The notes under the pieces were generated by a model. It searched no databases and was not told where the DNA came from. It saw nothing but the letters and a program-made list of their open reading frames with translations. A stretch of DNA of 64,000 nt, from the NCBI RefSeq assembly GCF_024700885.2, contig NZ_CP117016.1, one strand, 5' to 3'. Of the stretch, positions 9,815-20,900 are shown one piece after another. This DNA comes from Escherichia coli. GTDB lineage: Bacteria > Pseudomonadota > Gammaproteobacteria > Enterobacterales > Enterobacteriaceae. Positions within the stretch are counted from its first letter, which is position 1, and every line of letters starts with the position of its first letter. A program made the position numbers and the translations under genes.

Positions 9815-11622
9815 GTCTCCTGGCTTTCTGTGTTCACAACGGTCAGCATGTGGAATGAGTTAACGCTGGCGTACAGCGACAGAAAATGCGAAAGCACCGT
9901 ACCAAGCAGATACATTTCCCCTTCACAGACAAACGGCTCCGGGTGCAGATACAGCGTGGAGGCCAGCCCCCGGACGGGAATGCCCGTAAACAGGCGATCG
10001 ACAGGGCGGGTCTCCAGACGCTCAATGGCATCCAGCTTTTGTTGTGACAGCCGCGCCGTCTGCGGATGATGGATTGCGTGGCGATCAAAGTTGGCGATGA
10101 CCTGCTTCAGCGCGTCCGTATCCAGTAATGACAGATAATTCAGGTTCATGGCGGAGAGCAGGGACCAGTGCAGGCTGCCATCAATGACCGGCCAGAGCGG
10201 TTGCGTCGGGCGGGTAATGTTGCGAAATGAAGCAACAGCCGCATTTTTACCGGTTGTGCCGGTGATATCGCCGGAACGAATTTGTGACGGAAGCTCACGG
10301 TTGGTACAGGTCAGCGATACCGAAACCACTTCATTACTGAGCAGCGATTCGTCTGACGGATAACTGCCATCAGCATGTATAAAAGCAAGGGTATGATCAA
10401 AGCCGCGATGGAACAGGGATGTTTTGGTCCGGTGATGCCAGTACACCACTTCCCGCTTCCGGCTGTATTCCATCTGATGGCTGAAACTTTCAAAGGCAGG
10501 CCACTGGCGCGCGGCCTGCGTCGAAACAGGACGCCCCAGATCTTTTTTCCTGAACATATCCTGCACCTGGCTCACCACGCCGTTAACGGAAAAGACATCG
10601 TAATGTTCCGGATAGTGGCGGCTGGGAACCAGCGGATAGTCTGCCCGCCGGTTGTCCAGCGTGATGGCTTCTGCATGGTGGATAAATAAATTAATGGCAG
10701 GTGCGCAATACAGGCGCAGAGAATCGCGGCGCAGCCGGATGTCCACGGGCAATGGGCGCGAAAAACGCAGTTGCAGGGTAAAGGATTCAGCCTGCAATCC
10801 GTCAGGCAACGCCGGGCAACCACAAAGATCAAAAAAGAGAAACGCATCCGGGTAACAGAAATACTCCTGAAGGATCCGGTAGCCGCTGTGGAGGTTTTTC
10901 GGCCAGGGCAGCATGGCATCCTGCGGCTCAAAACCGACAGCTTTCAGCATAAACTCAGGCAGGCGAATATGCTGTTCACCCACAGTCAGGTCGGCACCCT
11001 GCAAGTATTCACAGAACCATAAATAAAGCTGGTCACGGGTATAGTTGTCGTCATTGCCGAGCCAGAAGCGAAGTTTGTTCAGATCCAGCGTGCGGAAGTC
11101 CGTTCCCGGTGCGACCGAAAAGGTGATGTTGATAACACCATTACGGGTCGTACTGCGGTTTTCAATCTGCTCCAGGCGAACGGGCAGCAGCCAGATATCC
11201 CGGCAGAGGGTGAAGGTACAGGGAGGCGGCTCCTCCTTTTTAGCATCGGAGGGCAGCACTTCATCGACTCTGATTTCCCCGGCTTTGGTTGTAAACTGCT
11301 CATTACGGGGGATTAACACCGGCACAGAAGACTTATCCATATCCGGCGTATATTCAATAAGGGTCATTGCCGGAACCGGACGCAGGTAATTAGGCCAGAG
11401 CATCTTAATAAGCCCGTGCGTCAGTTCTGGGAATTCATCCTCAATTTTCTGGCGGAGATTGCCGGTAAGAAAAGCCACGCCTTCCAGCAGGCGTTCAATA
11501 TCCGGATCCGCATCTTTTTCGGCCAGGAAGCGGGCAAGATGGGGTTTTTCCGTTGCCAGCAGCTTGCTGAGCTGGCGCAGGTAATCGAGTTCTTCCCGGA
11601 AATAGCGTTCTTCAAATTCCAT
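9772..11622 (-). CDS. tssF: T6SS baseplate protein TssF
   Basis: 616 aa; N-terminus MEFEERYFREELDYLRQL...LLEGVAFLTGNLRQKIEDEFPEL typical of TssF/ImpG. Confidence 0.85.
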   Translation of the reverse strand: MEFEERYFREELDYLRQLSKLLATEKPHLARFLAEKDADPDIERLLEGVAFLTGNLRQKIEDEFPELTHGLIKMLWPNYLRPVPAMTLIEYTPDMDKSSVPVLIPRNEQFTTKAGEIRVDEVLPSDAKKEEPPPCTFTLCRDIWLLPVRLEQIENRSTTRNGVINITFSVAPGTDFRTLDLNKLRFWLGNDDNYTRDQLYLWFCEYLQGADLTVGEQHIRLPEFMLKAVGFEPQDAMLPWPKNLHSGYRILQEYFCYPDAFLFFDLCGCPALPDGLQAESFTLQLRFSRPLPVDIRLRRDSLRLYCAPAINLFIHHAEAITLDNRRADYPLVPSRHYPEHYDVFSVNGVVSQVQDMFRKKDLGRPVSTQAARQWPAFESFSHQMEYSRKREVVYWHHRTKTSLFHRGFDHTLAFIHADGSYPSDESLLSNEVVSVSLTCTNRELPSQIRSGDITGTTGKNAAVASFRNITRPTQPLWPVIDGSLHWSLLSAMNLNYLSLLDTDALKQVIANFDRHAIHHPQTARLSQQKLDAIERLETRPVDRLFTGIPVRGLASTLYLHPEPFVCEGEMYLLGTVLSHFLSLYASVNSFHMLTVVNTESQETWKWTERTGQHPLI

Positions 11623-11625
11623 CTG

Positions 11626-12039
11626 TCAGTCCACCCGATAATGCTGGCTGCCATTCGGTGCCATATCAAATTCAAGCACTTCATGCGTTTCGTTAAATGT
11701 CACCCTGGCTGTAATATGAAACGTCATATCCAGCGGGCTGGCGGCGGATGAAACCACAGCCTGCACTTCAGCGTGTGAGATCCGGGGTTCATAGCGTTCT
11801 ATACATTGCGCGATGGCCAGACTCATTGATTCGCGGAAGTTTTCAGCCCCTGCAGGTTCATCAATGCCCAGTTCAGGCGCACCCCGGCAACTACCGGACC
11901 GGGTATTAAGAATGTTTCGCAGGTTCTGGCGAATGGACTGCCTGAGCGCATGAATACTGCTTCCTTGCCAGTTTCTGGCCGGTGAGGCTTCCATACGCTC
12001 AAAAAGAGAACCTGTGGTTCTTTCCCGATCCGGTATCAT
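11626..12039 (-). CDS. tssE: T6SS baseplate protein TssE (gp25-like)
   Basis: 137 aa; gp25/lysozyme-like pattern (ALRQSIRQNLRNILNTRSGS); between tssC and tssF. Confidence 0.8.
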   Translation of the reverse strand: MIPDRERTTGSLFERMEASPARNWQGSSIHALRQSIRQNLRNILNTRSGSCRGAPELGIDEPAGAENFRESMSLAIAQCIERYEPRISHAEVQAVVSSAASPLDMTFHITARVTFNETHEVLEFDMAPNGSQHYRVD

Positions 12040-12045
12040 GGCGTG

Positions 12046-13521
12046 TTACTCCCTGTCTAACCGGCCAACCAGGGATAGCTCAAAGTTTGCCCCCATAAAT
12101 TTAAAATGGGGCCGCACGCTCAGCGCGACCTGGTACCAGCCGGGTTCGCCTTCCACATCCATAACCTCAACTCTGGCAGCACGCAGAGGCTTGCGGCTGC
12201 GCACGTCCGCAGGCGGGTTTTCCTGGTCGGCAACATACTGACGGATCCAGGTATTAAGCTCCCTCTCTAAGTCGCTCCTTTCTTTCCATGACCCCAGTTG
12301 TTCACGCTGCAACACCTTGATGTAGTGCGCTAACCGATTGATGATGAAGAGATAAGGAAGCTGCGTACCCAACTTATAGTTGGTTTCTGCGTCTTTGCCC
12401 GGAAAGTGCTTCGGTTTTTGTACCGAGTTTGCAGAGAAAAAGGCTGCATTATCAGAGTCTTTACGCATGGTAAGGGTGATAAAACCCTCTTCAGCCAGTT
12501 CAAATTCGCGGCGATCGGTGACCAGCACCTCGGTTGGGATTTTGGCCTGAATCTGACCCATCGTTTCGAACAGATGCACCGGCAGATCTTTCACTGCGCC
12601 GCCGCTTTGCGGACCGATGATATTTGGACACCAGCGGTATTTGGCAAAACTGTCTGCGACATTGCACGCCAGCATCCAGGCCGTATTACCCCACAGATAA
12701 TCTTCGTGGTTCCGGCTGACATCTTCGTGATAGTTAAAGTTCTTAACAGGGTTATCTGTTGGTGAATAAGGCTGGCGAAGCAGGAAGCGGGGTGCCGTAA
12801 GCCCTAAATAGCGCGAATCTTCCGAGTCACGCAGGGCGCGCCATTTGGTGTAGGCCGGACCTTCAAAGATGGCATAAAGATCTTTGATATTAGGCAGTTC
12901 GGTCCACGAGTTCAGCCCCATAAACTCCGGGGAAACGGAGGAGAGGAACGGTGCGTGCGCCATTGCGCCCACAGCACTGACGTATTGCAGCAGTTTCATG
13001 TCAGGAGCGGTATTTTTGAACTCATAAGCGCCCAGCACGGCAGCGATGGGTTCACCACCAAACTGTCCGAATCCGGACGAATAAACGTGTTTATAAAATC
13101 CGGACTGAATAATTTCTGGGGCAAATTCAAAGTCTTCCAGAAGTTCCTGCTTCGTGACATGAAGCACGTTGACCTTGATGTTTTCACGGAAATCAACGCG
13201 ATCCACCATGGTTTTCAGTGAGCGCCAGAACGACTCGACCTGCTGAAAGGCAGGCGCATGGATGATGACATCCATCTGGCGGCTGATGCGTTCATCTATA
13301 TCTGCAATCATGCTGTCCACGGCCAGTTTATTGACCGGTTCGGCAGATGCAGTGGATTGCAGGATGCTGGCAATAAAGGCTGTCACACCCTGGCGGGCAA
13401 CGTCATAACCTTCCGAACCGGGCTGAATACGGGTCTGTGCCATGATTTGATCAAGCAGCGACGACGCCTGATCAGTCTGCCCGGCATGACTGGAAACGAG
13501 TTCCTCTTCCTGTAAAGACAT
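12046..13521 (-). CDS. tssC: T6SS contractile sheath large subunit TssC (VipB)
   Basis: 491 aa; size and sequence match the TssC family; follows tssB. Confidence 0.9.
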   Translation of the reverse strand: MSLQEEELVSSHAGQTDQASSLLDQIMAQTRIQPGSEGYDVARQGVTAFIASILQSTASAEPVNKLAVDSMIADIDERISRQMDVIIHAPAFQQVESFWRSLKTMVDRVDFRENIKVNVLHVTKQELLEDFEFAPEIIQSGFYKHVYSSGFGQFGGEPIAAVLGAYEFKNTAPDMKLLQYVSAVGAMAHAPFLSSVSPEFMGLNSWTELPNIKDLYAIFEGPAYTKWRALRDSEDSRYLGLTAPRFLLRQPYSPTDNPVKNFNYHEDVSRNHEDYLWGNTAWMLACNVADSFAKYRWCPNIIGPQSGGAVKDLPVHLFETMGQIQAKIPTEVLVTDRREFELAEEGFITLTMRKDSDNAAFFSANSVQKPKHFPGKDAETNYKLGTQLPYLFIINRLAHYIKVLQREQLGSWKERSDLERELNTWIRQYVADQENPPADVRSRKPLRAARVEVMDVEGEPGWYQVALSVRPHFKFMGANFELSLVGRLDRE

Positions 13522-13589
13522 ACTGAAAATCCTTCTGTTTTAGCTGTGTTTCTGAAACCGGGTTTTCGCCGTCAGTGAAGTACGCGCCG

Positions 13590-13841
13590 TCAGTACGGCG
13601 CGCTCTGCTGAAACTCACAAAGATGGATAATCTCATCCAATAGATCACTGATACGGCGATCCAGTGTTGTAATCAGCGCATCCACGCCATCCCGGTTGAT
13701 TTCACCGGACGGGCTGAAACATACCCGGTAAACCGCCTGCAAAATGTCTTCGTCAGAGAGGGGGTGTTTCCCGGAGATATTTTTGTGTGCCGCCATGTCT
13801 GGATAACCCTGTTTAATGAAATAGTGGTGGTTATTTCCCAC
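13590..13841 (-). pseudogene. Remnant resembling the 5' end of a divergent tssC allele
   Basis: 83-aa ORF in the unusual ~300 bp tssB-tssC gap. Its C-terminal half (GEINRDGVDALITTLDRRISDLLDEIIHLCEFQQ) aligns with intact TssC residues ~60-95 (PVNKLAVDSMIADIDERISRQMDVIIHAPAFQQ), about 15 of 33 identical by eye. Confidence 0.4.
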
Positions 13842-14331
13842 TCACCTGGCCGATTTCTTTAAGCAACTGCTCGCGGGACTCCTCATTTTCCAGCAATGCC
13901 TGGAGCTGGGTACGGAATGCCGGAAGGTTGCCCATCGGCCCCTTCAGCGCAGTCAGTGCTTCACGCAGTTCCAGCAATTTATTCACTTCCGGAACCTGCC
14001 GGGCCACGCTGTCCGGTGAAAAATCATCCAGTGACTTGATATTCAGCGCCACATTCAGTTCATCGTCCGTTGTGCTTCCCTTCAGCGTGGCGGGGACGGT
14101 AAAATTGAGGCCAATGGCTGCTTCAGCCATTACTGCACCGAAATTGTGCTTGTTAACGGAAACTGCCTGACGTTCATCCAGTGGGGATGTCTCCTGCGTA
14201 TTTCCGGTATCGCCGACAACGAGCATGTTAAGCGGAAGCTCTACTTCAGCCGTCTGGCCGTCCGTCTTCGGGACATAGGATATATTTATACGCTCGCGAG
14301 GCGCGACGCTGCCTTCAAATTTTTTGCTCAT
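13831..14331 (-). CDS. tssB: T6SS contractile sheath small subunit TssB (VipA)
   Basis: 166 aa; N-terminus MSKKFEGSVAPRERINISYVPKTDGQ...LNMLVVGD typical of TssB. Confidence 0.9.
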   Translation of the reverse strand: MSKKFEGSVAPRERINISYVPKTDGQTAEVELPLNMLVVGDTGNTQETSPLDERQAVSVNKHNFGAVMAEAAIGLNFTVPATLKGSTTDDELNVALNIKSLDDFSPDSVARQVPEVNKLLELREALTALKGPMGNLPAFRTQLQALLENEESREQLLKEIGQVSGK

Positions 14332-15027
14332 AAAAGTGATCCGTCATGTTATCTCGTACAGGCCATGAACACGGCATATTTGTACCGCAAAAAAATATCG
14401 GCAATGCCGCCATAATGGCGGTGAAAATAAAATCACCACTCCTTCATCACCCCGCATTCTACGCTTCAAAATAAATAAGAAAAGGACTTTTTATCGATCG
14501 TAAAGAGGGGTATTCTGCAAGCGTTAAATAGATTGTGTGAACCTGTGCAATTCGCGTCAGGTGTATTATGGCAATAATTTAAATATATAGCTTTTATGTA
14601 ACTTATTGAATTATACAATAATTTCATTAAACATAAGCTAATCTGATGATTGCTTGTTTATATATTTGTTTTGTGATTGATTAAGTGGGTATTTTTAAGG
14701 AATATCTCAAAAATTATCAAAATGATAATTCAGAAAGGATAAATACAATATTTATTCATGATTCAGCTTTGGCCATTTTATGGAGGCAATACGGACTTTG
14801 AATAGTTGGGTATGGTTATCCAGATATATATTATTAACTTATTGCTGAATAAGAGATTTAATGATTTTAAAAATAGTTTTTACGACAACCGTAAATTCTA
14901 GCTCGGTTTGTATGTAAAAAATACTGAAAAATGATGCGGTTCCGTGAAGTGAGCTGCATCTGCCTGTCTGGGATTAACGGCAGGTCATTGTAAGTAGTAA
15001 TTAACCACGTTAACAAGGAGTTTACAA
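14332..15027. promoter_or_regulatory. AT-rich divergent control region between the tssB operon and hcp
   Basis: ~700 bp with no convincing ORF, visibly AT-rich, flanked by divergent tssB (minus) and hcp (plus) starts; RBS aaggag precedes the hcp ATG. Confidence 0.45.
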
Positions 15028-15546
15028 ATGCCAACACCGTGTTATATCTCCATCACAGGTCAGACCCAGGGAAATATTACTGCAGGTGCATTTACCGCTG
15101 ATTCTGTCGGCAACATCTATGTGCAGGGGCACGAAGACGAGATGCTGGTGCAGGAATTCCTGCATAACGTTACTGTCCCGACCGATCCTCAGTCCGGCCA
15201 GCCTGCGGGTCAGCGTGCTCACAAGCCGTTCATTTTTACCGTGGCGCTGAACAAAGCTGTTCCGCTGATGTACAACGCACTGGCCTCCGGCGAAATGCTG
15301 CCAACCACTGAACTTCACTGGTGGCGTACCTCTGTGGAAGGCAAACAGGAGCATTATTTCACCACCCGCCTGACCGATTCGACGATTGTCGATATGAAAC
15401 TGCATATGCCGCATTGCCAGGATCCGGCGAAACGCGAGTTCACCCAGTTGCTCGAAGTTTCACTGGCCTACCGCAAAATAGAGTGGGAACACGTCAAGTC
15501 TGGCACCTCCGGTGCCGACGACTGGCGCGCACCGCTGGAAGCATAA
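15028..15546 (+). CDS. hcp: T6SS inner tube protein Hcp (TssD)
   Basis: 172 aa; MPTPCYISITGQTQGNITAGAF... typical of Hcp. Confidence 0.9.
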   Translation: MPTPCYISITGQTQGNITAGAFTADSVGNIYVQGHEDEMLVQEFLHNVTVPTDPQSGQPAGQRAHKPFIFTVALNKAVPLMYNALASGEMLPTTELHWWRTSVEGKQEHYFTTRLTDSTIVDMKLHMPHCQDPAKREFTQLLEVSLAYRKIEWEHVKSGTSGADDWRAPLEA

Positions 15547-15556
15547 GTTAAGCCAA

Positions 15557-15590
15557 CAGCATCCGGCTATTAGGCCGGATGCTGTTTTTG
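15557..15590 (+). terminator. Rho-independent terminator after hcp
   Basis: Inverted repeat cagcatccggc / gccggatgctg followed by tttttg. Confidence 0.6.
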
Positions 15591-15755
15591 TATTACGCCG
15601 TAAAAAGAAAGGTTGTCAGTAAGGGGTTACGTTCACGGGAGATGGCGGATGCCGGAAACTTCGGCGGTAGCGTGCCTGAACGCAAGCGTAACACTGTACT
15701 GTTACAGCCGCTTTAACAGCGAACTGTCTGTTTTTCCTTAAACCCGGAGGTTGCT

Positions 15756-17864
15756 ATGTCAACCGGATTACGTTTCACGCTGGAAGTGGACGGCCTGCCA
15801 CCGGACGCGTTTGCGGTGGTCTCCTTTCATCTGAACCAGTCACTCTCTTCGCTCTTTTCCCTCGATCTCTCTCTGGTCAGCCAGCAGTTTCTCTCCCTTG
15901 AATTTGCGCAGGTGCTGGACAAAATGGCCTACCTGACGGTATGGCAGGGCGATGACGTACAGCGCCGGGTGAAAGGTGTGGTGACCTGGTTTGAACTGGG
16001 GGAGAACGACAAAAACCAGATGCTGTACAGCATGAAGGTGTGCCCACCGCTGTGGCGCACAGGGCTGCGCCAGAACTTCCGTATCTTCCAGAATGAGGAC
16101 ATCGAAAGCATACTCGCGACGATCCTGAAAGAAAACGGGGTGACCGAGTGGAGTCCGCTGTTCAGCGAGCCGCATCCTTCCCGTGAGTTTTGTGTCCAGT
16201 ACGGCGAAACCGATTACGATTTCCTGTGCCGGATGGCGGCGGAGGAAGGCATCTTCTTTTATGAGGAGCACGCGCAAAAAAGTACCGACCAGAGCCTGGT
16301 CCTGTGCGACACCGTGCGTTATCTGCCGGAGTCCTTTGAGATCCCCTGGAATCCGAACACCCGTACCGAGGTGAGCACCCTATGCATCAGCCAGTTCCTC
16401 TACAGCGCACAAATCCGCCCATCTTCCGTGGTGACCAAAGACTACACCTTTAAACGACCCGGCTGGGCAGGGCGTTTTGATCAGGAAGGCCAGCACCAGG
16501 ATTACCAGCGCACACAGTATGAAGTGTATGACTACCCCGGACGTTTCAAGGGTGCCCACGGGCAGAACTTTGCCTGCTGGCAGATGGATGGCTGGCGAAA
16601 CAACGCAGAAGTGGCGCGCGGAACAAGCCGTTCGCCGGAGATATGGCCGGGACGGCGAATTGCGCTGACGGGGCATCCGCAGGCGAACCTGAACCGGGAA
16701 TGGCAGGTGGTGGCAAGTGAACTGCACGGCGAGCAGCCGCAGGCGGTGCCGGGACGCAGGGGTTCAGGTACCACGCTGAATAACCACTTTGCGGTAATAC
16801 CGGCAGACAGAACATGGCGGCCACAGCCGTTGCTGAAACCGCTGGTGGACGGCCCGCAGAGCGCCGTCGTGACGGGACCGGCAGGAGAAGAAATCTTCTG
16901 TGATGAACATGGCCGCGTGCGGGTGAAATTTAACTGGGACCGCTATAACCCGTCAAACCAGGACAGTTCATGCTGGATCCGTGTGGCACAGGCGTGGGCA
17001 GGCACCGGCTTTGGCAACCTGGCGATACCGCGTGTGGGTCAGGAAGTCATTGTGGACTTCCTCAACGGCGATCCGGACCAGCCGATTATTATGGGGCGTA
17101 CCTACCACCAGGAAAACCGCACCCCCGGCAGCCTGCCGGGAACAAAGACGCAGATGACCATTCGTTCGAAAACCTATAAGGGCAGCGGGTTTAATGAACT
17201 GAAGTTTGACGATGCGACAGGGAAAGAACAGGTCTACATCCACGCGCAGAAGAACATGAACACCGAGGTGCTGAATAACCGCACCACGGATGTGATAAAC
17301 AACCATGCTGAGACCATTGGCAACAATCAGATGATTGCGGTTACCAACAATCAGATACAGACGGTGGGTGTTAACCAGATAGAGACGGTGGGCAGTAACC
17401 AGATCATTAAAGTGGGCTCTGTTCAGGTGGAAACGATTGGACTTGTTCGTGCGCTGACTGTGGGCGTGGCGTATCAGACGACGGTAGGTGGCATTATGAA
17501 CACCTCGGTGGCCCTGATGCAGTCCTCGCAGATCGGTTTGCATAAATCGTTGATGGTCGGGCTGGGTTATGACGTCAAAGTCGGAAATAACGTTACCTTC
17601 ACCGTTGGTAAAACGAAAAAGGATGATACCGGGCAGACCGCGATTTACTCCGCCGGTGAGCATCTGGAACTCTGCTGTGGTAAGGCAAGGCTGGTGCTGA
17701 CTAAGGACGGACAAATTTTTCTCAACGGCACAAAAATTCATTTGCAGGGTAAGGAGCAGGTTAATGGTGACTCACTGTTGATTAACTGGAACTGTGCAGC
17801 CTCGAAATCCCCACCGAAGACCCCTGATGAAAAGCAGGATACGCCGGATATGAGAGAGTACTGA
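15756..17864 (+). CDS. vgrG: T6SS spike protein VgrG (TssI)
   Basis: 702 aa; gp27/gp5-like VgrG with the repetitive beta-helix region (VINNHAETIGNNQMIAVTNNQIQTVGVNQIETVGSNQII). Confidence 0.9.
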   Translation: MSTGLRFTLEVDGLPPDAFAVVSFHLNQSLSSLFSLDLSLVSQQFLSLEFAQVLDKMAYLTVWQGDDVQRRVKGVVTWFELGENDKNQMLYSMKVCPPLWRTGLRQNFRIFQNEDIESILATILKENGVTEWSPLFSEPHPSREFCVQYGETDYDFLCRMAAEEGIFFYEEHAQKSTDQSLVLCDTVRYLPESFEIPWNPNTRTEVSTLCISQFLYSAQIRPSSVVTKDYTFKRPGWAGRFDQEGQHQDYQRTQYEVYDYPGRFKGAHGQNFACWQMDGWRNNAEVARGTSRSPEIWPGRRIALTGHPQANLNREWQVVASELHGEQPQAVPGRRGSGTTLNNHFAVIPADRTWRPQPLLKPLVDGPQSAVVTGPAGEEIFCDEHGRVRVKFNWDRYNPSNQDSSCWIRVAQAWAGTGFGNLAIPRVGQEVIVDFLNGDPDQPIIMGRTYHQENRTPGSLPGTKTQMTIRSKTYKGSGFNELKFDDATGKEQVYIHAQKNMNTEVLNNRTTDVINNHAETIGNNQMIAVTNNQIQTVGVNQIETVGSNQIIKVGSVQVETIGLVRALTVGVAYQTTVGGIMNTSVALMQSSQIGLHKSLMVGLGYDVKVGNNVTFTVGKTKKDDTGQTAIYSAGEHLELCCGKARLVLTKDGQIFLNGTKIHLQGKEQVNGDSLLINWNCAASKSPPKTPDEKQDTPDMREY

Positions 17865-17930
17865 TCCCGTACCTGTTCGGTATTCAGTAACAAACAAGCA
17901 TTAAAAATAAACAGAAGAAGGAATTGAATC

Positions 17931-20900
17931 ATGAGCGGAAAACCAGCGGCGCGTCAGGGAGATATGACTCAGTATGGCGGTCCCATTGTCCAGGGTTCGG
18001 CAGGTGTAAGAATTGGCGCGCCCACCGGCGTGACGGACGGTGCCGGGCGGGAGTTCCGTCTGGTGCTGACCACGCAGGCGCAGCGGGCGGAAGAGGCCCG
18101 TAAACAGCACACCGCTTCCTTATTTTCCCCTGACACCCCCCGCCCTCTTTCAGCCTCAGCGTTCCCCGACACACTGCCCGGTACCGAATACGGCCCCGAC
18201 AGGGGCATCCGTCTTTCGGCGGTGTGGCTGATGCACGACCCGGCATACCCGGAGAGCCTGCCCGGTGCGCCACTGGTGCGGTACACGTATACGGAAGCCG
18301 GTGAACTGCTGGCGGTATATGACCGCAGCAATACGCAGGTGCGCGCTTTCACGTATGACGCGCAGCACCCGGGCCGGATGGTGGCGCACCGTTACGCGGG
18401 AAGGCCGGAGATGCGCTACCGCTACGACGATGCGGGGCGGGTGGTGGAGCAGCTGAACCCGGCAGGCCTGAGTTACCGCTACCAGTATGAGCAGGACCGC
18501 ATCACCGTCACGGACAGCCTGAACCGGCGTGAGGTGCTGCATACAGAAGGCGGGGCCGGGCTGAAGCGGGTGGTGAAAAAAGAACTGGCGGACGGCAGCG
18601 TCACGCGCAGCGGGTATGACCCGGTGGGGCGGCTTACGGCGCAGACGGACGCGGCGGGACGGCGGACAGAGTACGGTCTGAATGTGGTGTCAGGCGACAT
18701 CACGGACATCACCACGCCGGACGGGCGGGAGACGAAATTTTACTATAACGACGGGAACCTGGTGACGGCGGTGGTGTACCCGGACGGGCTGGAGAGCCGC
18801 CGGGCGTATGATGAGCGGGACAGGCTGGTATCGGAGACATCGCGCAGTGGGGACGTCATCCGGTATGCTTATGATAATCCGCACAGTGAATTACCGGCCA
18901 CGACAACAGATGCGACGGGCAGCACCCGGCAGATGACCTGGAGCCGCTACGGTCAGTTGCTGGCGTTCACCGACTGCTCGGGCTACCAGACCCGCTATGA
19001 GTATGACCGCTTCGGCCAGATGACGGCGGTCCACCGCGAGGAAGGCATCAGCCTTTACCGCCACTATGACAACCGTGGCCGGTTAACCTCGGTGAAAGAC
19101 GCACAGGGCCGTGAAACGCAGTATGAGTACAACGCCGCAGGCGACCTGACTGCCGTTATCACCCCGGGCGGCAACCGGAGCGAGACACAGTACGATGCGT
19201 GGGGAAAAGCGGTCAGCACCACGCAGGGCGGGCTGACGCGCAGTATGGAGTATGACGCGGCAGGACGTGTCGCCACGCTGACCAACGAGAACGGCAGTGA
19301 CAGCGCCTTCCGTTACGACGCACTGGACCGGCTGGTACAGCAGGGCGGCTTTGACGGGCGGACGCAACGTTATCATTATGACCTGACCGGAAAACTCACG
19401 CAGAGTGAAGATGAGGGGCTTGTCACCCTCTGGCACTACGACGAATCGGACCGCCTCACTCACCGCACGGTGAACGGCGAACCGGCAGAGCAGTGGCAGT
19501 ATGATGGCCACGGCTGGCTGAGAGAAATCAGCCACCTGAGCGAAGGCCACCGTGTGGCGGTCCACTACGGCTATGACGATAAAGGCCGTCTGACCAGTGA
19601 GCGCCAGACGGTGAAGAACCCGGAGACGGGGGAACTGCTGTGGCAGCATGAGACGAAACAGGCATACAACGAACAGGGGCTGGCAAACCGCGTCACGCCG
19701 GACAGCCTGCCGCCGGTGGAGTGGCTGACCTATGGCAGCGGTTACCTGGCGGGCATGAAGCTGGGCGGGACGCCGCGGGTCGAGTATACGCGGGACAGGC
19801 TGCACCGGGAGACGGTGCGCAGCTTCGGCAGCATGGCAGGCAGTAATTCCGCATATGAACTGACCAGCACATACACCCCCGCAGGTCAGTTACAGAGTCA
19901 GCACCTGAACAGCCTGGTGTATGACCGTGACTACGGGTGGAATGACAACGGCGACCTGGTGCGCATCAGCGGCCCGCGACAGACGCGGGAATACGGCTAC
20001 AGCGCCACGGGCAGGCTGGAGAGCGTGCGCACCCTCGCACCGGACCTGGACATCCGCATCCCGTATGCCACGGACCCGGCGGGCAACCGGCTGCCGGACC
20101 CGGAGCTGCACCCGGACAGTACACTCACAGTGTGGCCGGATAACCGCATCGCGGAGGATGCGCACTATGTCTACCGCCACGATGAATACGGCAGGCTGAC
20201 GGAGAAGACGGACCGCATCCCGGCGGGTGTGATACGGACGGACGACGAGCGGACCCACCACTACGACAGCCAGCACCGCCTGGTGTTCTACACGCGGATA
20301 CAGCATGGCGAGCCGCAGGTGGAGAGCCGCTACCTCTACGACCCGCTGGGCCGCCGGACGGGTAAACGGGTGTGGCGGCGGGTACGTGACCTGACGGGGT
20401 GGATGTCGCTGTCGCGTAAACCGGAGGTAACGTGGTACGGCTGGGACGGTGACAGGCTGACGACGATACAGACACAACAGAGCCGGATCCAGACGGTATA
20501 CGAGCCGGGAAGCTTCACACCACTCATCCGCATCGAAACAGACAACGGCGAGCGGGAGAAAACGCAGCGGCGGAGCCTGGCGGAGAAGTTGCAGCAGGAA
20601 GGAAGCGAGGACGGCCACGGTGTGGTGTTCCCGGCAGAACTTGTGAGGATGCTGGACAGGCTGGAGGGGGAAATCCGGGCAGACCGCGTGAGCAGTGAAA
20701 GCCGCCAGTGGCTGGCACAGTGCGGGCTGACGGTGGAGCGGCTGGCGGCACAGATAGAGCCGGTTTATTTACCTGAGCGAAAAATTCATCTTTATCACTG
20801 TGACCACCGGGGGCTGCCGCTGGCGCTCATCAGTACCGAAGGAGCAACGGAATGGCGTGGGGAATATGATGAATGGGGCAACCTGCTGAATGAGGAGAAC

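Follow-up and report, generated by a model that had tools for sequence, protein, structure and literature searches.

Rhs1, the first of two rhs genes in a type VI secretion system (T6SS) island of Escherichia coli, is an apparently intact gene that proves to be a deletion allele without the plug of its Rhs cage. It occupies positions 17931-21578 on the plus strand of a 64,000-nt stretch of contig NZ_CP117016.1 (the whole of which is called the window below) and forms a single unbroken open reading frame (ORF) of 1215 amino acids. A segment of 609 nt is missing from its N-terminal coding region. We conclude that Rhs1 is probably an allele, disabled not long ago, of an ordinary Rhs effector of the full-length, VgrG-linked RhsA type. 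This conclusion is drawn because the endpoints of the deletion are defined by a repeat, full-length counterparts are present at the same locus, the deleted form (Rhs1-delta) has a restricted distribution, and the domains removed are those described below.

The deletion and its junction

The original prediction held that Rhs1 carries an in-frame deletion of about 203 codons relative to Rhs2, the second rhs gene of the island, and keeps an open frame of 1215 codons. Both statements are borne out. In a BLASTN comparison, nt 93 of Rhs1 pairs with nt 702 of Rhs2, an offset of exactly 609 nt or 203 codons; the junction, at 18023-18032, overlaps the interval 18025-18045 in which it had been placed, and the ORF is uninterrupted from end to end. 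The choice of Rhs2 as a working reference does not hold, as Rhs2 is itself a pseudogene with a frameshift and two stops. The alignment with full-length Rhs proteins of other genomes that had been proposed as a check gives the same result: an identical 609-nt gap is found in Rhs1 against the intact full-length alleles of DA33137, PCN033, 19KM1776 and REL606.

Full-length alleles contain the 10-mer CACCGGCGTG at gene positions 93 and 702, 609 nt apart, and Rhs1 contains one copy, at 18023-18032 on the plus strand. Both copies encode T-G-V, within GAPTGV and GEITGV, respectively. Because this tripeptide is repeated, the deletion can be written either as parent residues 35-237 or as 32-234. At the junction Rhs1 reads APTGV in place of EITGV, so that the PAAR-like repeat is now fused straight to a cage strand. 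When the DA33137 allele is compared with the window, the left flank (15745-18032) is 99.8% identical and the right flank matches from 18023; the two flanks overlap by exactly the 10-nt repeat. Such a footprint is what slippage or illegitimate recombination at short direct repeats classically leaves behind. We propose that recombination between the two copies of the repeat, slipped-strand or illegitimate, eliminated the 609 bp. The frame stays open since the copies, each coding for T-G-V, are separated by 203 codons.

Of the 47 pairs of direct repeats of 10 bp or longer in the full-length gene, 35 have a spacing divisible by 3. A deletion that keeps the frame is therefore to be expected and does not point to selection. 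The open frame would persist only because the event was recent and in frame. In strain 1190 and other carriers, RefSeq annotates Rhs1-delta as a pseudogene ('incomplete; missing N-terminus'), and GenBank lists the exact 1215-aa protein under the name 'RHS repeat protein'. The allele is thus already flagged; the feature is real, its explanation is ordinary, and it is no new kind of toxin.

Domains kept and lost

It had been suggested that the deletion removes most of the PAAR-like spike-loading segment and that loading of Rhs1 onto VgrG is therefore in doubt. The deletion and its size were correctly described, and the question of loading is reasonable; what was lost had been misplaced. Rhs1 retains residues 1-34 (17931-18032, plus strand), a single PAAR-like repeat that includes the PAAR motif KPAARQGD at residues 4-11. 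Missing from it are the conserved ACSVCPGG anchor, the autocleavage site and the DUF6531 plug, together with about 110 more residues, which make up the initial cage strands.

Pfam places DUF6531 at residues 46-123 of the full-length N-terminus (E = 1.9e-18), wholly within the deleted residues 35-237. The Pfam PAAR_motif model (PF05488) gives only weak, non-significant matches to the full-length parent (E = 0.18 and 1.7 at residues 2-29). Among distant relatives, P0237 (with three) and P0166 carry more than one PAAR-like repeat ahead of the conserved GxACSVCPGG...PVNP segment, whereas the E. coli and Tse5 type carries one. By this comparison, the PAAR-like N-terminus of this family looks like a third of a canonical PAAR domain.

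The NF041261 profile is an equivalog model with a cut-off of 2000 bits. Rhs1 passes it with 2216 bits, and the full-length DA33137 allele scores 2713 bits. The full-length allele matches the profile end to end (1-1261), whereas the main match of Rhs1 covers profile positions 235-1261 and positions of about 35-234 are absent. The hallmarks of the cage are otherwise present in Rhs1, namely YD repeats (TIGR01643, 153.8 bits), the Rhs-associated core (TIGR03696, residues 979-1056) and a DPIGL motif of the DPxGL type. The residual cage, together with the C-terminal core and aspartyl autoprotease region, spans 18033-21098 on the plus strand.

In an alignment of 17 relatives with 37-79% identity to the full-length allele, most of the invariant N-terminal positions fall in the deleted span; they include A35, C36, C39, G46, P48, V49, P51, G54, K56 and D63, among others. 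An AlphaFold model of full-length residues 1-460 (predicted template modelling score, 0.76) matches chain B of the Pseudomonas aeruginosa Tse5 structure (8cp6_B) with E = 7e-33. The model places about 14 strands and two short helices within residues 50-238. Its predicted local distance difference test score is below 50 for residues 1-49, and the PAAR-like segment has no confident fold.

Tse5 provides the functional map for these segments. Its residues 1-47 form a PAAR-like fragment that is required for secretion; residues 1-29 are flexible, and residues 30-47 are anchored within the shell via the plug (PMC10684867, PMC9637101). Cleavage occurs at K47|P48, and the plug, residues 48-124, corresponds to DUF6531 (PMC10684867, PMC9637101). 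The cleavage-site motif PVNPxLGAKV, conserved in the family, is deleted in Rhs1; in the E. coli full-length protein (PVNPLLGAKV) it aligns with the residue at which the Tse5 shell begins. With Tse5 as the yardstick, Rhs1 keeps 34 of roughly 47 PAAR-like residues. The plug of RhsA from P. protegens closes off the cocoon and joins it to the end where PAAR and VgrG lie (PMC8765631). The Rhs1-delta product would thus keep its PAAR-like repeat and be without the anchoring peptide, the autocleavage site, the sealing plug and about 14 beta-strands. The protein may still be made. It is probably unable to form a sealed, spike-mounted toxin container, and is probably not delivered.

Distribution of the junction and full-length counterparts

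A search for the junction in other isolates, which had also been suggested, was made with a 44-nt probe that cannot seed on one half alone, in a sample of 5426 complete E. coli genomes. The exact junction was found in 30 of them, with one copy per genome, and two metagenome contigs carry the same Rhs1-delta allele. A 70-nt junction query returned 648 records at ≥99% identity, mostly one-sided partial matches, so this figure is not the true count. The whole Rhs1-delta and immunity module is present, at 98.9-100% identity, in 28 of the 30 junction genomes. Placement at the T6SS locus was seen in the six of these 28 that were inspected, as well as in UID2309220033, which lies outside the 28 and has an Rhs1-delta truncated by IS1.

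PCN033 and 19KM1776 carry, at the same locus, a full-length Rhs1 of 1420 amino acids; toxin, immunity gene and frameshifted Rhs2 are the same as in the window. Outside recombination blocks, the 609-nt gap is what distinguishes these two strains from the window. The T6SS of PCN033 has VgrG1-dependent antibacterial activity, and its RHS proteins are listed as candidate effectors (PMC6363058). As to the vgrG of the PCN033 cluster (locus L003, 4827-6934), RefSeq annotates it as frameshifted; PMC6363058 describes two genes there (vgrG1 and 0248) with a functional VgrG1, and the two accounts are not in obvious agreement.

A natural, normally secreted family of Rhs proteins with this short N-terminus would have spoken against the original prediction. 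No diverged family of this kind was found when 1.84 billion representative proteins were scanned in full, and the junction is absent at the protein-coding level from 100,044 species-representative genomes. The sole match through the junction among the representative proteins is a 94-aa fragment of the same allele; the long relatives in that scan align from about residue 226 of full-length proteins. A word-indexed protein search with the first 120 amino acids of Rhs1 returned only short contig-end fragments.

A second background at the yncH locus

The junction also occurs on a different haplotype. In strain 19SZHZ869Rt (NZ_CP080085.1, 8926-12540), an identical junction lies at the yncH-vgrG-rhs-ydcD locus on a haplotype of the REL606/ATCC 8739 type, and this genome has a single copy of the junction. 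Compared with the full-length REL606 allele, the first 745 nt to the right of the junction are identical; on the left, no difference is met before an 18-nt insertion or deletion at a distance of about 1.95 kb, followed by one single-nucleotide polymorphism at about 2.1 kb. Compared with the window haplotype, 19SZHZ869Rt is indistinguishable within a zone of 383 nt (window 17703-18085) and different outside it.

The simpler reading of these alignments is that the junction in 19SZHZ869Rt is probably an independent recurrence at the same repeat. The CACCGGCGTG repeat pair may thus be a recurrent deletion site, a small hotspot in RhsA-type genes. The other way to account for the yncH-locus junction is copying of a short tract from a window-type allele, by gene conversion or recombination, with no independent deletion. 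Block exchange among rhs paralogues is clear in these genomes, and a short tract would leave no trace since the 383 nt around the junction are the same in both haplotypes. Against this, 19SZHZ869Rt equals REL606 outside those 383 nt, from about 1.95 kb on the left (farther differences aside) to 745 nt on the right, and its genome holds no donor, the junction copy at yncH being the only one. We regard such copying as rather unlikely, though it deserves some weight.

Strain 1190 also has a yncH locus (NZ_CP023386.1, 10262-18204), in which vgrG, rhs and the neighbours yncH and yncG are all annotated as frameshifted. These four adjacent frameshifted genes may represent real decay or local assembly errors.

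Rhs2, gene conversion and continuing decay

Rhs2 (22117-26065, plus strand) has a full-length N-terminus and is split into three ORF fragments (22117-23562, 23576-24304 and 24305-26065) that lie in two frames; its RefSeq label is 'frameshifted; internal stop'. It has three lesions: a stop codon (TAA) at 23560-23562, a frameshift shortly after this, and a second stop codon (TAG) at 24302-24304. At the TAA site, the window and strain 1190 have T, and O7:H15, PCN033 and 19KM1776 have C; the TAG stop is missing from PCN033. The frameshift is common to PCN033 and 19KM1776, which have a full-length Rhs1, and thus predates the Rhs1 deletion.

The six Rhs1-delta haplotypes that were inspected differ from one another by nested blocks and a 6-nt insertion or deletion, with very few point changes. 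Because the nested blocks partly match the adjacent Rhs2, they point to gene conversion among rhs paralogues and not to point mutation. Within the window, a stretch of about 700 nt is nearly the same in Rhs1 and Rhs2 (about 19063-20256 in Rhs1 and about 24300-25060 in Rhs2). A strict BLAST for an identical tract shared by Rhs1 and Rhs2 returned nothing, and the tract is documented from the haplotype comparison. Mirror-image changes are present in Rhs2 of PCN033.

Two carriers show further loss. In UID2309220033 (locus L008, 6751-12984), IS1 truncates Rhs1-delta, the immunity gene and Rhs2 are gone, and vgrG has an internal stop. In SW4848 (locus L011, 2326-4434), vgrG likewise contains an internal stop. 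The Rhs1 deletion would thus be one step in the decay of an effector array, in which Rhs2 was broken earlier and some carriers later lost vgrG or the 3' end of Rhs1.

The database Rhs proteins P0138 and P0143 have very large in-frame internal deletions of the YD-repeat core, and P0143 has a toxin of the same HEFAH family as Rhs1. Internal deletion seems to be frequent in rhs genes.

Alternative explanations

Several observations weigh against a disabled allele. Rhs1-delta has kept its start codon, upstream region and PAAR-like repeat intact, and the frame is open in all six inspected haplotypes, with 1215 or 1217 amino acids. At the locus of strain 1190, which is 100% identical to the window across 10001-29200 (19.2 kb), every T6SS structural gene and the vgrG directly upstream of Rhs1 are intact by RefSeq annotation. 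Killing by Tse5 does not need N-terminal cleavage (PMC10684867), so the loss of the cleavage site alone is no proof of lost function. Finally, one deletion on two haplotype backgrounds could mean selection and not a mutational hotspot.

The open frame, the retained repeat and the intact T6SS genes would fit a working effector without a plug, whose PAAR-like repeat still mounts on VgrG and whose toxin is delivered. Such an effector would have the retained residues 1-34 with their PAAR motif, an intact vgrG 66 nt upstream and a conserved immunity gene. What it would lack is nearly all of the invariant N-terminal residues and the whole DUF6531 plug, as well as the equivalent of the peptide that anchors the N-terminal fragment of Tse5 inside the shell. 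This architecture occurs in no diverged family and the allele is rare (30/5426); some carriers have undergone further loss, and an in-frame result is expected in any case. We therefore consider delivery by a plug-less Rhs1 improbable. Selection for the deletion is more doubtful still. It would make the deletion a recurrent switch that disarms the toxin or changes its release while the PAAR-like repeat still caps VgrG and T6SS firing is kept, the presence of one junction on the window-type haplotype at the T6SS locus and on the REL606-type haplotype at the yncH locus being convergence. The window contains no second ORF with a PAAR motif, as would suit a capping role. The second background is known from one genome only, however, and a perfect 10-bp repeat in all RhsA-type alleles explains recurrence without selection. 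A stub of 34 residues with neither anchor nor plug may not suffice to cap VgrG, and vgrG itself is broken in UID2309220033 and SW4848. A selected disarming is thus very improbable. We reject the ideas that the short form is an assembly artefact or the ancestral state from which an insertion produced the long form; nothing beyond the repeat-rich nature of rhs genes speaks for them. Thirty independent complete assemblies and two metagenome contigs contain the junction, and the long form is the norm of the family, both in the relatives aligned above and in the NF041261 profile.

Relation to known Rhs proteins

The closest known protein is the RHS element core protein of PCN033 (WP_047938332.1, 1420 aa; NF041261, RhsA/RhsD type), which shares with Rhs1 the locus, vgrG, the cage, the toxin and the immunity gene. 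The two are 98.8% identical outside the gap. Unlike this orthologue, Rhs1 has no counterpart of parent residues 35-237, and RefSeq records it as an incomplete pseudogene with no protein. Among solved structures the closest is P. aeruginosa Tse5 (PDB 8cp6), in which chain B starts at P48. Tse5 and the full-length parent have a common layout: a PAAR-like fragment, a cleavage site before PVNP(M/L)LG, the DUF6531 plug, a YD-repeat shell and a C-terminal autoprotease. Tse5 is intact and secreted, whereas Rhs1 of the window is without the equivalents of Tse5 residues of about 35-215; the toxin domains of the two are unrelated.

A canonical fused PAAR domain is not essential for the delivery of an Rhs cage, as RhsP of Vibrio parahaemolyticus and Tse15 of Acinetobacter baumannii show. 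These are complete closed cages with N-terminal domains of their own, whereas Rhs1-delta has a hole at the plug and first strands, and its sequence places it in the PAAR-linked E. coli family. Other E. coli Rhs pseudogenes and fragments, such as Rhs2, P0138 and P0143, have frameshifts, stops and large internal in-frame deletions, as is often seen in repeat-rich rhs genes. Rhs1-delta differs from them in that its deletion is N-terminal and defined by a 10-bp repeat, and the remainder is open.

The finding that this 1215-aa Rhs ORF, intact at first sight, is a deletion allele with no cage plug matters mainly for annotation. The lineage has an intact T6SS machine and no obviously functional Rhs effector encoded in the cluster, which is useful for predicting the competitive ability of strains. 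A natural plug-deletion allele and its full-length counterpart in the experimentally tractable PCN033 form a pair suited to probing the role of the DUF6531 plug and anchor in loading.

Locus layout and the candidate toxin-immunity pair

The structural genes of the island, tssB, tssC, tssE, tssF, tssG, tagH, tssJ, tssK, tssL and tssH, are all on the minus strand. The plus strand carries, in order, hcp, vgrG, Rhs1, a 149-aa ORF, Rhs2 and an ISAs1 transposase gene; yafV, ivy and fadE lie beyond. The tube protein gene hcp (15028-15546, plus strand) is a 172-aa ORF; strain 1190, in which the locus is identical, has an Hcp family protein annotated here. The spike gene vgrG (15756-17864, plus strand) is intact and encodes 702 amino acids; it scores 625.9 bits with the NCBIfam model TIGR03361 and is annotated in strain 1190 as VgrG WP_001605069.1. 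The ISAs1-family (H-repeat) transposase that ends the Rhs element is a 378-aa ORF at 27027-28163 on the plus strand.

The placement of Rhs1 fits a VgrG-linked specialised T6SS effector, with the end of vgrG at 17864, the start of Rhs1 at 17931 and a small ORF after it, and the order of vgrG, rhs and small ORF is repeated in other genomes. The small ORF (21591-22040, plus strand) encodes 149 amino acids with a hydrophobic, signal-peptide-like N-terminus and is present after both deleted and full-length Rhs1. By its conserved position it is a candidate immunity gene. NCBIfam gives no match for this ORF and no name for the C-terminal toxin of Rhs1. The variable toxin domain (21099-21575, plus strand) contains a HEFAH motif of the HExxH type and weakly matches Pfam Peptidase_M91 (E = 0.081). 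A metallopeptidase acting in the periplasm, paired with a periplasmic immunity protein, would fit these two sequences.

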